From: an uncultured Candidatus Saccharibacteria bacterium
GTDB lineage: Bacteria > Patescibacteriota > Minisyncoccia > Phycocordibacterales > UBA2100
Direction of reading: 5' to 3'
Length of the DNA stretch: 64,000 nucleotides
Assembly: GCA_964512835.1 (NCBI GenBank)
Contig: CAZELA010000001.1
Coordinates: 297,372 to 361,371, forward strand
The notes beneath the pieces are model-generated. The model was not told where the DNA came from and did not search any database. It saw only the letters and a program-made list of their open reading frames with translations. Positions 11,388 through 63,046 of the stretch are shown here, one piece after another. Position 1 is the first letter of the stretch. Every line of letters begins with the position of its first letter. The translations under genes and the position numbers were made by a program.

Positions 11388-11741
11388 ATGGTGGTGAAAA
11401 TGTTTTTGAACGATTGGGAAAACATCGATGAAATGAAGAATGACTTCGAGATATCGGACGTCGAGCTTGCTGGTGTCCGTATTCTCCTCGCTTCCTATAC
11501 CTGCGAGAATTACGATGGCTCTGCCTTCGTATTGTTTGAGCGGGATGGGAAGTTGTACGAGGTCAACGGCAACCACTGTTCTTGCTACGGTTTAGAAGGA
11601 CAATGGGAGCCGGAAGAGACGACGGTTGAGTCGTTGAGACATCGCCTGGAAAAGGGATGGCTCGGCTGGGCTTGGGACGGCACGGCTAACACCTTTGCCG
11701 ACGAGTTTGCAAACGTACTCAATACGATCGAACGTCGGTAG
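11388..11741 (+). CDS. hypothetical protein
   Basis: 117-aa ORF followed by a clear terminator. No family recognised. Confidence 0.45.
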   Translation: MVVKMFLNDWENIDEMKNDFEISDVELAGVRILLASYTCENYDGSAFVLFERDGKLYEVNGNHCSCYGLEGQWEPEETTVESLRHRLEKGWLGWAWDGTANTFADEFANVLNTIERR

Positions 11742-11750
11742 GTTGACTGA

Positions 11751-11781
11751 GCGGAGGGCCCGGCCCTCCGCTTCTTTTTTT
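11751..11781 (+). terminator. rho-independent terminator
   Basis: GCGGAGGGCC-CGGCCCTCCGC hairpin then TTCTTTTTTT. Confidence 0.75.
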
Positions 11782-11851
11782 GCCCGCGTTTCGCGGAATC
11801 GGGGACACCTGTTATCTTTATGCCAATTGGGGAATCGGAGTACTCAATCAA

Positions 11852-11922
11852 TGGGGGATCGTCTAATGGTAGGACTTCAGGTTTTGGTCCTGAATATCAT
11901 GGTTCGAGTCCATGTCCCCCAG
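11852..11922 (+). tRNA. tRNA-Gln (anticodon UUG)
   Basis: Manual cloverleaf: acceptor TGGGGGA/TCCCCCA (7 Watson-Crick pairs, U1-A72, discriminator G73 as in bacterial tRNA-Gln), D-arm GTCT-AATGGTA-GGAC, anticodon arm TCAGG-TTTTGGT-CCTGA (U33, anticodon TTG), 4-nt variable loop, T-arm CATGG-TTCGAGT-CCATG. CCA not encoded. Confidence 0.9.
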
Positions 11923-11964
11923 CAAAAAATTGAGCACCGCGAATATTTTTTGCGGGGGACATGG
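11910..11964. repeat. 20-bp inverted repeat forming a hairpin through the tRNA-Gln 3' end
   Basis: CCATGTCCCCCAGCAAAAAAT (tRNA T-stem 3' side plus acceptor 3' side plus trailer) pairs with ATTTTTTGCGGGGGACATGG 14 nt downstream, with one bulged A. Confidence 0.8.
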
Positions 11965-11978
11965 AGAGGAAAGGGGTC

Positions 11979-12033
11979 GGGAAAACACCTGTTTTCCCGT
12001 GGAGGAAGGTTTGGGAAAACCGTGGGTTTCCCA
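11979..12033. repeat. pair of similar short hairpins GGGAAAAC-N-GTTTTCCC
   Basis: GGGAAAACAcctgTTTTCCC at 11979-11998 and GGGAAAACCgtgGGTTTCCC at 12014-12033. Confidence 0.6.
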
Positions 12034-12034
12034 G

Positions 12035-12068
12035 AGGTCCTAGTCCCCCAGGTCATGGACTCGAAGCC
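12035..12068. repeat. rearranged copies of tRNA-Gln 3'-end segments
   Basis: GGTCCTAG-TCCCCCAG-GTCATGGACTCGAA holds a direct copy of the tRNA 3' end (TCCCCCAG) and an inverted copy of the T-loop and stem (CATGGACTCGAA is the reverse complement of TTCGAGTCCATG). Confidence 0.6.
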
Positions 12069-12203
12069 CGGAGCGATATGAGGCCAGTAGGCCGAATCGC
12101 GAGGGCCGGGTAGCGAGCCGAGGAGCACGATGGTGCGACGAGAGCGGAGCGCGAGCCATGTTTCCCAGCTCGTCATTTTTCGTTTTCGTGTTAGTTTTCG
12201 GGA

Positions 12204-60905: not shown

Positions 60906-61610
60906 ATGACAAAGACACAATCCCTCATCGCTATTCCGGCCATCGCGGCAACACTGCTCGCGGGCGGAGCGCTCGCAGGGTATGCAACACTCGCTTCGGC
61001 GCAGACGGCAGACTCATCGACGGGTTCGGCAGTAGCGACAATGATGAAAGGTATGCGAGATCGCGGACCACACGTCCACGGTACCGTCACTGCGGTGAGC
61101 GGCACGACCATCACCATCACTGATGATCGACAGAACACGACGTACACGATCGACGCGAGTGCGGCTACGTTCAAGAAGGCCGCGGAAGGAACGGCTCCGA
61201 CCACAGTAACGATCTCCGAGATCGCAGTAGGTGACACTATCAGTGCAATGGGGACCGTTTCCGGCACGACGGTCAAGGCGACCGAAGTACTGGAAGGCGA
61301 CTTCGGTCGTGGCGGTCACGGCGGCATGGGCGGTCACGGACGAGGTCCCGGCGTTATGGGCACGGTTACGGCAGTCAACGGTTCGACCATCACTGTCACC
61401 GATCAGCGCAGCGGAACGAGCTATACGGTGAACGCAGGTTCGGCAACTGTTCAGAAGATGACAACCGGCGCGCTCAGCGACATCGTCGTGGGCGACACAA
61501 TCGGTGTACAAGGCGATGTATCGGGCTCAACGGTAACAGCAAAGAACATCATGGATGATCTGCCTGTACCCCCGAACGGACCGTCTGCTGCTCCGACGCA
61601 GAATCAGTAA
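60906..61610 (+). CDS. secreted protein with two DUF5666-like repeats separated by a Gly-His-rich linker
   Basis: Signal peptide. Repeats GTVTAVSGTTITITDDRQNTTYTID ... VGDTISAMGTVSG and GTVTAVNGSTITVTDQRSGTSYTVN ... VGDTIGVQGDVSG. GRGGHGGMGGHGRGPG linker. Confidence 0.5.
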   Translation: MTKTQSLIAIPAIAATLLAGGALAGYATLASAQTADSSTGSAVATMMKGMRDRGPHVHGTVTAVSGTTITITDDRQNTTYTIDASAATFKKAAEGTAPTTVTISEIAVGDTISAMGTVSGTTVKATEVLEGDFGRGGHGGMGGHGRGPGVMGTVTAVNGSTITVTDQRSGTSYTVNAGSATVQKMTTGALSDIVVGDTIGVQGDVSGSTVTAKNIMDDLPVPPNGPSAAPTQNQ

Positions 61611-61707
61611 TCAATCGACGACACAACACACTCCAGAGCGCGCAGGCCCCCGACGCTATCAGCACAGGGGGTCTGCGGCATGGAAGACCTGCACTTTCAC
61701 ACGTACT

Positions 61708-62277
61708 ATGTCTCGCATGAGCGCAGCCGATACAGACGAAACGATTGCGTCCCGTGTTCAGGCGGGGGACGCGGATGCCTATGGCGAGCTCGTGGCCCGT
61801 TACGAAGCAAAGCTGCTTCGCTACGGCCGCAAGTTTCTTGCGCGCGACGAGGACCGGCAGGATATCGTGCAGGATGTATTCATCAGTGCGTACCAGAACA
61901 TACAGAGTTTCGATACGACGCAGCGCTTCTCGCCCTGGATGTATCGCATCGCTCACAACGCATTCGTGAACGAAATTCGCAAGAACGAACGCAGGCCGCT
62001 GTTGCCGTTTGATTTCGATACGGTCATCCCGCATGCGGTCTACGAAGATCCCGCAGAGAGCGAGCGGGAACAGAAGGATATGCGCGCGTATCTTGAGCGG
62101 GGGTTAGGCAACATTTCGTCCAAGTACCGCGAAGTATTGGTGCTTCACTATTTCGAAGACATGGCTTACAAGGACATCGCTGATATTCTGCAGGTGCCGC
62201 AAGGCACCGTGGGTATCAGAATAAAACGGGCAAAGGAGGCATTGCGGGCACAGTACACAGATAAAAACTATGAATAA
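61708..62277 (+). CDS. ECF-type RNA polymerase sigma-70 family factor
   Basis: Region 2 DIVQDVFISAYQ ... SPWMYRIAHNAFVNEIRK and region 4 DIADILQVPQGTVGIRIKRAKEAL. Confidence 0.75.
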   Translation: MSRMSAADTDETIASRVQAGDADAYGELVARYEAKLLRYGRKFLARDEDRQDIVQDVFISAYQNIQSFDTTQRFSPWMYRIAHNAFVNEIRKNERRPLLPFDFDTVIPHAVYEDPAESEREQKDMRAYLERGLGNISSKYREVLVLHYFEDMAYKDIADILQVPQGTVGIRIKRAKEALRAQYTDKNYE

Positions 62278-63046
62278 CGAACATCACAAAAAGGAGTCAT
62301 TGAAGGACGCGGTTCTTTCAAAGATCAAAGCGGGGGATGTGGCAATGAAGCCCCGACTGTATTTCACGTTGCAGGTGGGAGCTGTTGCGGTCGTTTCTGT
62401 TGTTGTTCTGATGCTCTCGATCTTTATATTCAATTTCATTCTGTTCTCCATTCGTATCAACAGTCACGATGCGTTCCTGGCGTTTGGCCCGCGAGGTATT
62501 CAGGGGTTCCTTATCTTCTTCCCATGGCTAACGCTCATGCTTGATGTGGTGATGATCGTCATACTGGAATGGCTCATACGTAAGTTTCGCTTCGGATACC
62601 GTATTCCGATGCTCTACATTGTGGGTGCGATACTAGCGCTCACATTCGTCGCCGGGTTTGCTCTCGATCGCGGAACATACTTCAACGACCGGCTCATGGA
62701 TCGAGCAGAACACGAAGGCCTGCCGCCTCCGCTCGCGTTTATGTATCATGGTGCCCGTCATGCGCCGCACGACGGAATCTGTCGCTGTACGGTCACTGCT
62801 ATTGAGAATTCGACAATCACGGTTGCCGATTTCCGCGACGGGGCGACAACGACCTACACAGTCCTCTTGCCGACTGATGATATACGAGCGACTTCGTCCA
62901 ATATCAAAGTCGGAGACGTAGTGTTCGTTGCGGGGGACAAGGATGAGGATGGTACGATTCGCGCCTTCGGCGTACGAAAGGAGAGCGACAAAGGGTACCG
63001 GAGCCGACCGCCTCAAGAGATTCCTGCGCAGGAGCGAATGAAATAA
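62270..63046 (+). CDS. putative anti-sigma factor, membrane protein with C-terminal DUF5666-like module
   Basis: ATGAATAA overlap with the sigma gene. Three or four TM helices. C-terminal CTVTAIENSTITVADFRDGATTTYTV ... VGDVVFVAGD resembles the repeat of the 60906 gene. Confidence 0.5.
   Translation: MNNEHHKKESLKDAVLSKIKAGDVAMKPRLYFTLQVGAVAVVSVVVLMLSIFIFNFILFSIRINSHDAFLAFGPRGIQGFLIFFPWLTLMLDVVMIVILEWLIRKFRFGYRIPMLYIVGAILALTFVAGFALDRGTYFNDRLMDRAEHEGLPPPLAFMYHGARHAPHDGICRCTVTAIENSTITVADFRDGATTTYTVLLPTDDIRATSSNIKVGDVVFVAGDKDEDGTIRAFGVRKESDKGYRSRPPQEIPAQERMK

Follow-up and report, generated by a model that had tools for sequence, protein, structure and literature searches.

The 3′ end of the tRNA-Gln gene in the 64,000-nt stretch of DNA analyzed here (the window) is an empty chromosomal attachment site (attB): some genomes of the same clonal population carry an element inserted between positions 11926 and 11927, with CAGCAAA on both sides. 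We hold with moderate confidence that the site serves an element of the large serine recombinase (LSR) type and that the additional pieces of the tRNA 3′ end found downstream are degenerate attB-like copies stemming from earlier rearrangements. The tRNA gene was recognized both by the covariance model and by ARAGORN, with a cloverleaf and an anticodon. The features of the site and of the trailer following it are given below (coordinates in the window, strand, description).

11852–11923, plus strand: tRNA-Gln gene (anticodon UUG), found by ARAGORN and as Rfam RF00005 (59.9 bits, gathering score 29); predicted cloverleaf minimum free energy (MFE) of −26.6 kcal/mol
11901–11945, plus strand: attB in its approximate extent, judged from the four att junctions and the usual 40–50 bp size of a serine-integrase attB
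11920–11926, plus strand: core CAGCAAA, common to attB, attL, attR, and attP
11909–11930, plus strand: left arm of a palindrome, the last 13 nt of the tRNA and 9 nt of the trailer
11945–11965, minus strand: right arm of this palindrome, an inverted copy of TCCATGTCCCCC(A)GCAAAAAAT with 21/22 identity
11979–11998, no strand assigned: palindrome (hairpin 1) GGGAAAACACCTGTTTTCCC, perfect
12013–12032, no strand assigned: palindrome (hairpin 2) GGGAAAACCGTGGGTTTCCC, one mismatch
12033–12051, plus strand: direct degenerate copy of the tRNA 3′ end, AGAGGTCCTAGTCCCCCAG, with GTCCTAGTCCCCCAG at 12037–12051 (13/15)
12051–12065, minus strand: inverted copy of the T-loop and T-stem, TTCGAGTCCATGaCC, a 14/15 inverted match to TTCGAGTCCATGTCC that directly abuts the direct copy
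12151–12169, plus strand: second, weaker direct copy of the tRNA 3′ end, GAGCCATGTTTCCCAGC, which includes CAGC, with CCATGTTTCCCAGC at 12154–12168

An exact-protein look-up of the two genes flanking the site in JGI, Logan, and NCBI assemblies yielded 19 contigs, which stem from about 12 samples. All 19 were 100% identical to the window across their overlaps, and many of them stopped or changed within 11919–11975. Contigs from three samples (L007, L008, and L009) matched the window through ...CCCCCAGCAAA (11926) and then ran into CTTAGATACCCTTCGG...; another contig from the sample of L007 (L017) arrived from ...TTCGAACTTTTTCTAACAAACA and entered the window at CAGCAAAAAAT (11920). Two contigs of sample 3300045392 overlapped at the branch by exactly 55 nt (11919–11973), as is typical where an assembly graph built with k = 55 forks. 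Of the element, 126 nt of one end and 48 nt of the other were seen in this population, and we infer the LSR gene there from the near-identical ends of the Vogelbacteria copy described below.

Several Logan contigs began or ended inside the trailer (at 11982, 11997, 12005, 12063, and 12070), where no repeat was long enough to explain it; the population may thus harbor additional trailers of altered structure. A look-up of spurious trailer-spanning open reading frames for more junction variants returned a single contig (L014; JGI 3300045394 Ga0490021_007015, 1–800), with AT-rich phage DNA joined at 11863 inside the tRNA. The foreign DNA was 85% identical to a 33-kb phage, and the two matches overlapped by about 4 nt at the junction. 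As an attR of a prophage this contig was rejected: the junction cuts a Gp44-like baseplate gene of the phage mid-reading-frame, and the contig was therefore discarded as the product of an illegitimate or chimeric join that probably arose during assembly or library preparation.

Both foreign ends were contiguous in a Ca. Vogelbacteria MAG (L046), where they read ...CTAACAAACA-CAGCAAA-CTTAGATACCC... (in longer form, ...GTTCGAACTTTTTCTAACAAACA-CAGCAAA-CTTAGATACCCTTCGGAATTTTTGG...). The end in L017 was identical to it at 47 of 48 positions and the end in L007 at 122 of 126 (97–98%). The flanks of the window (attB), of L007, L008, and L009 (attL), of L017 (attR), and of L046 (attP) swap exactly around CAGCAAA, and in silico the empty and occupied junctions recombined with one core and no duplication. 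A gene encoding a 457-aa large serine recombinase (L046 5942–7312) was found 120 nt past the att junction of the Vogelbacteria copy, so a recombinase stands beside attP there. Its product contained Resolvase, Recombinase, and Zn_ribbon_recom domains (Pfam E-values of 1.7e-23, 3.4e-15, and 4.5e-08, respectively) with an N-terminal YARKST motif. Its identity to SPbeta SprA, to the serine integrases of Bacillus phages, and to any solved relative was below 30%. The same element end was adjoined by a 38%-identical LSR at another locus (L048). The proposal of the first-pass annotation, integrase-mediated insertion and excision at the tRNA gene, was thus borne out by the coexisting alleles and the att quartet, with the correction that the enzyme is of the serine and not of the tyrosine type. 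The last 43 codons of the Vogelbacteria recombinase are present in a tandem duplicate (L046 7282–7410).

At 14 of 17 loci the element end, GTTCGAACTTTTTCTAACAAACACAGC, kept its sequence through ...AACACAGC and diverged from there on; therefore, the crossover was placed within CAGC. The attP has the symmetric form TTCGAA-N16-CA-N16-TTCGGAA and, further inside, a TCTAA/TTAGA repeat, and from this dyad symmetry the central dinucleotide, and with it the crossover point, is probably CA (tRNA nucleotides 71–72). The left half of attB consists of the T-loop, T-stem, and acceptor 3′ strand of the tRNA and the right half of the first ~20 nt of the trailer. Only the tRNA half has its outer motif at the distance expected for attB: the T-loop TTCGAG lies 11 nt from CA, compared with 16 nt for TTCGAA in attP. 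In the right half, TTCGCG stands as far from CA as the motif does in attP; this half is not clearly symmetric to the left one and fits the scheme poorly. When the right half-sites of 12 attR junctions were compared, no common motif emerged.

According to the proposed mechanism, the last ~20 nt of the tRNA-Gln gene and the first ~20 nt of the trailer would form the chromosomal attB. As the junctions show, the exchange is conservative and takes place within CAGC, and the tRNA is left intact, since G73 and CAAA are present in the element as well. The T-loop TTCGAG would play in attB the role of TTCGAA in attP, 5 bp closer to CA. Most other tRNA-Gln genes of the Candidate Phyla Radiation (CPR) compared (L020, L029, L035, L036, and L047) encode CCA (CAGCCA). 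The CAGCAAA of the window is closer to the attP of the element than those other trailers, which raises the possibility that an earlier element left behind its first trailer bases.

A 22-mer of the L017 element end was also found beside a tRNA-Gln gene in a metagenome contig unrelated to the window (L022), and this 22-mer was then used for a genome scan. It matched 15 genomes, all of them Patescibacteria/CPR (Saccharibacteria, Parcubacteria, Kaiser-, Nomura-, and Vogelbacteria, and Paceibacterota), and in 5 of the 15 a tRNA-Gln gene was located 0.1–1.7 kb from the element end. The att region of the element had no match in plasmid or phage records; in viral contigs, the tRNA end, both element ends, and the L014 junction were all absent.

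Just inside the conserved element end lay a non-coding, GC-rich module of 200–260 nt, conserved among the sampled Vogelbacteria, Paceibacterota, Saccharibacteria, and Nomurabacteria. It was located as follows.

L046 5418–5717, minus strand; L038 4907–5310; L043 5020–5320; L042 4487–4790; L047 278–577; L039 4767–5010; L022 1–218: GC-rich module

The module is predicted to form a long stem, in which 12 pairs were retained through changes on both sides, and had no Rfam match; it may serve the mobile element as a structured piece of RNA or DNA. In two Saccharibacteria loci (L039 4633–4790 and L047, minus strand, ~546–700), a 90–140 nt piece of the recombinase-side arm ran directly into the other element end, which was inverted; a recombinase gene was missing between the two. 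This arrangement may be an inversion or deletion derivative.

The site resembles those of phiC31, Bxb1, A118/LI, and SPbeta SprA in the conservative exchange without target duplication, the short core shared by attP and attB (7 bp here), the quasi-palindromic attP, the protein with Resolvase, Recombinase, and zinc-ribbon domains, and the outer motif positioned 5 bp nearer the center in the attB half than in attP. This would agree with the serine-integrase site architecture, including the 5-bp offset of the zinc-ribbon motif between attB and attP, that Rutherford et al. reportedly described in 2013. Unlike these serine integrases, the enzyme considered here targets a tRNA 3′ end in CPR/Patescibacteria hosts, it is only distantly related to phage and solved proteins (below the 30% identity given above), and a degenerate copy of its attB follows that site in inverted orientation. 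The 3′ ends of tRNA genes are the usual territory of tyrosine integrases.

Four copies of the tRNA end were found downstream of the gene, two inverted (11946–11965 and 12051–12065) and two direct (12037–12051 and 12154–12168, the latter missed by the first-pass annotation); the direct copies follow at spacings of 129 and 117 nt. The first inverted copy, which forms the right arm of the palindrome, comprises the tRNA half of attB, the core, and the first trailer bases, the sole difference being a missing A (11921). Because this A belongs to the core, the inverted copy is probably dead as a site. On the minus strand, the segment at 12033–12051 can equally be read as a copy of the 5′ acceptor strand of the tRNA followed by TAGGAC. 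Between these copies lie the two short palindromes, both of the form GGGAAAAC-N4-GTTTTCCC, which are the sole two such sites in 64 kb, with 0.02 expected.

For the chance test, the last 24 nt of the tRNA and 6 nt of the trailer were compared with the 275-nt trailer on both strands. Five diagonals scored at least 9, compared with a mean of 0.066 in 1000 dinucleotide shuffles, none of which reached 4 such diagonals, and the best single match had P(max ≥ 12.5) = 0.001. Some of the repeats are individually short (8–15 nt), but chance similarity in GC-rich intergenic DNA is as good as refuted by these values, with which other shuffle controls agree. The repeats and the two near-identical hairpins pointed out in the first reading are therefore all real and far above chance (5 diagonals, 0.07 expected). 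The search for other copies suggested there was run over the 64-kb window; besides those in the trailer none was found, including beyond 12169, and neither the trailer nor the rest of the window contained recognizable remnants of element ends. Decayed full-length tRNA pseudogenes were considered as a source of the copies and rejected, since the 5′ parts of the 129- and 117-nt units were no closer to the tRNA than shuffled sequences.

A segment 36 nt upstream of the tRNA gene (TCGGGGACACCTGTTATC, 11798–11816) resembles hairpin 1 (TCGGGAAAACACCTGTTTTC), with 11 of 12 positions identical in the core and about 0.02 such chance matches by a rough estimate. In view of this resemblance, the role of the GGGAAAAC/CACCTG palindromes may be to bind a protein on either side of the tRNA gene and not to form hairpins in RNA.

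Fragments of this kind were absent from 10 element-free loci with an identical tRNA 3′ end, and similar ones were found beside element ends in other CPR genomes. One locus (L049) had a perfect 19-nt direct copy 119–137 nt downstream of the tRNA gene, compared with 115–129 nt for the direct copy of the window; the element end lay ~100 nt beyond this copy, and the tRNA itself was unoccupied. In another (L042), two TTCGAGTCC fragments were present and a CAGC...GCTG palindrome abutted the element end. A strong palindrome including the tRNA end was encountered only in the window and in L035 among 17 tRNA-Gln loci. In L035 the distal arm of the palindrome was joined directly to the element end, which indicates that an inverted attB-like copy was used there; by its arrangement, this locus looks like the occupied form of the architecture that is seen empty in the window.

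The similarity to these loci is why the copies in the window are read as degenerate attB-like relics of a hot spot. Serine recombination is conservative; it duplicates no DNA and leaves no partial tRNA copy. Therefore, the copies cannot be products of the recombinase acting in its usual way, and we infer the relic status of the fragments from the comparison with other loci. For the same reason, the argument of the first-pass annotation that partial tRNA copies are a hallmark of integration does not by itself explain the fragments; its description of them as relics of att sites gains support from the other loci, as an interpretation and not as an observation. Under the proposed mechanism, the inverted and direct fragments within 250 nt, including the hairpin arm, would have been left by earlier duplications or rearrangements at the hot spot and would not be needed for the tRNA. 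Candidate processes are template switching (at the palindrome), unequal exchange, and an older integration of the tyrosine type.

No orthologous locus for comparison was found via either neighboring gene, and databases contain hardly any relatives of this lineage. The SbmA/BacA-like neighbor failed as a synteny anchor, with no relative in GTDB genomes and three homologues only, at most 49% identical. The other neighbor, encoding 117 aa directly upstream of the tRNA (11388–11741, plus strand), was rejected as an anchor because it is a promiscuous phage-type protein: it had no Pfam domain, matched phrog_21421 ('integrase') with an E-value of 3e-35, and had more than 1300 homologues with 50–66% identity in phages and unrelated bacteria (Sinorhizobium, Paenibacillus). 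Its product is too small for a recombinase. Some genes of the window were 68–72% identical at the DNA level to loci of Paceibacterota, Saccharibacteria, and Kaiserbacteria; together with the element ends matching a Vogelbacteria genome, this makes a CPR host probable. In a further contig (L021), a tRNA-Gln(CUG) gene with the same 3′ half was directly followed by two genes (L021 3805–5074), which were 52% and 33% identical at the protein level to window genes at 61555–63046, 50 kb from tRNA-Gln(UUG). Judging by the look of their sequences, these two genes presumably encode an ECF-type sigma factor and its partner.

The first-pass annotation had also suspected the 13 kb downstream of the tRNA to be a variable, mobile unit, and the direct copies could accordingly be attR relics of tyrosine-integrase elements, with the low-GC DNA downstream as their decayed island. 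Direct 3′-end copies at 129- and 117-nt spacing fit such integrations, and the GC content drops at the tRNA from ~0.58 to ~0.50 (0.57–0.60 upstream and 0.47–0.53 in 12204–35000). The following ~20 kb encode small accessory enzymes: GFA, EthD, cupin, three GNATs, NUDIX, RibD_C, CYTH, SET, and DUF1697 were found in 12204–35000, together with a CDF transporter. Tycheposon islands of Prochlorococcus show the same pattern (10.1101/2020.12.28.424599). However, neither a tyrosine recombinase nor any other integrase, transposase, or mobility gene was found in 12–43 kb, the window contained no distal repeat of the tRNA end, and the downstream 13 kb were 100% identical in every contig covering them. On these three grounds the DNA of 12204–35000, which looks like a flexible island, cannot be called a mobile unit on present evidence, and the suspicion of a variable unit was not upheld. 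Moreover, nothing in the units between the copies resembled the 5′ portion of the tRNA, this reading leaves the two inverted copies unexplained, and the sole integration actually seen at this site is of the serine type. We therefore regard an origin of the copies from tyrosine-type islands as unlikely.

Tyrosine-integrase att sites in tRNA genes, including those of P4-type and lambda-type islands, are said to have been treated by Williams in 2002. The site of the window shares with them integration into the 3′ part with the gene kept intact and direct partial 3′ copies, which there mark old junctions. It differs in that its junctions share 7 bp only, the neighboring recombinase is of the serine type, and no tyrosine recombinase was found.

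The extra copies could instead be functional secondary att sites, serving as landing pads for integration or for DNA inversion while the tRNA stays untouched. A palindrome starting at the tRNA CAGC is present in both L035 and L042, and its distal arm borders on the element end; in L049 the element end lies beyond a perfect second copy with the tRNA free. The layout of a tRNA, two hairpins, and a partial 3′ copy ~120 nt further on is common to the window and L049, whose sequences are different. Nevertheless, in the population of the window the element occupies the tRNA itself and not a copy, the inverted copy lacks the core A, and the direct copies are degenerate with different right halves. 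The supporting loci are three, none with both junctions visible. For the window we consider functional secondary sites quite unlikely. We are similarly doubtful of the wider form of this idea, in which the tRNA-Gln of CPR bacteria would have a built-in array of attB-like self-copies as landing pads or inversion substrates for a phylum-wide family of serine-recombinase elements, with the T-loop as the motif recognized by the zinc-ribbon domain. If it were true, cargo could be captured or flipped beside the tRNA without risk to it.

The near-perfect hairpin between the tRNA 3′ end and its inverted copy was confirmed, with the coordinates given in the first reading shifted by one base. Its arms (11909–11928 and 11946–11965) are complementary at 17 of 20 positions without gaps; with A11921 bulged, they form a 21-bp hairpin of 12 + 9 base pairs with a 14-nt loop. 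The trailer might thus pair with the T-arm and the acceptor 3′ strand in order to terminate transcription or to control 3′ processing or CCA addition of tRNA-Gln. The hairpin alone is very stable, with a predicted energy of −35 kcal/mol; a 117-nt precursor had an MFE of −48.7 kcal/mol via the hairpin, with the cloverleaf lost, compared with −36.9 kcal/mol with the cloverleaf held fixed. A 224-nt transcript gave a folding z-score of −4.6, with the 5′ acceptor strand paired with the distal direct copy. Furthermore, since the CCA end is not encoded by the tRNA gene, 3′ processing is obligatory. The earlier term 'locked' for the tRNA 3′ end is therefore thermodynamically fair according to the folding model, though any inverted repeat would have this effect and its stability comes automatically.

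The hairpin shares with intrinsic terminators and structured tRNA 3′ trailers a stable stem-loop directly after a tRNA gene; it differs from them in lacking a U-tract, in using 13 nt of the mature tRNA for the stem, and in not being conserved at other tRNA-Gln loci. No T-run followed it on either strand (the sequence after 11965 is GAGAGGAAAGG); therefore, it is not a canonical terminator. A terminator scan returned a single site, upstream of the tRNA (11749–11773), and nothing at the hairpin, which argues against the idea that it terminates the tRNA transcript. An Rfam search of the trailer gave sub-threshold miRNA-like hairpin matches only (E = 0.5–9). Background pairing with the tRNA end was all that 14 of 16 other tRNA-Gln loci showed, 10 of them with an identical 3′ end; one of the two exceptions is L035, with its distal arm joined to the element end. 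Since the tRNA is probably essential, a fold that wins over its cloverleaf has more likely been tolerated than selected. We thus consider a function of the hairpin at the RNA level very unlikely. The hairpin itself is probably a by-product, made harmless, again probably, by co-transcriptional folding and RNase Z cleavage.

Among described systems with an attachment site scarred by earlier rearrangements, as we read the window, the closest are the Prochlorococcus tycheposons, in which a tRNA hot spot occurs in empty and occupied alleles, partial tRNAs downstream are old traces, and 27 of 937 elements use a large serine recombinase (10.1101/2020.12.28.424599). The recurrent tRNA hot spot, the coexisting alleles, the partial copies downstream, and the LSR, used by a minority of tycheposons, are common to both. 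In contrast to tycheposons, the fragments of the window lie within 250 nt and half of them are inverted, the flanking island has no integrase remnant, and the element family is unrelated in sequence and confined to CPR genomes.

In the literature searched, serine-recombinase elements were not described from the tRNA-Gln genes of CPR bacteria, and to our knowledge the mobile elements of this group are almost undescribed. The tRNA-Gln 3′ end is an active attachment site; its general kind is known, but the group in which it occurs has been little studied. The locus yields a complete att quartet together with an insertion polymorphism in an otherwise clonal natural population. CPR organisms are thought to exchange genes rarely; the 97–98% identical ends in Vogelbacteria and the occurrence of the same 22-mer in 15 CPR genomes suggest horizontal transfer. 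A serine integrase with a tRNA-based attB is a candidate genetic tool for CPR bacteria, for which we know of no such tool at present.
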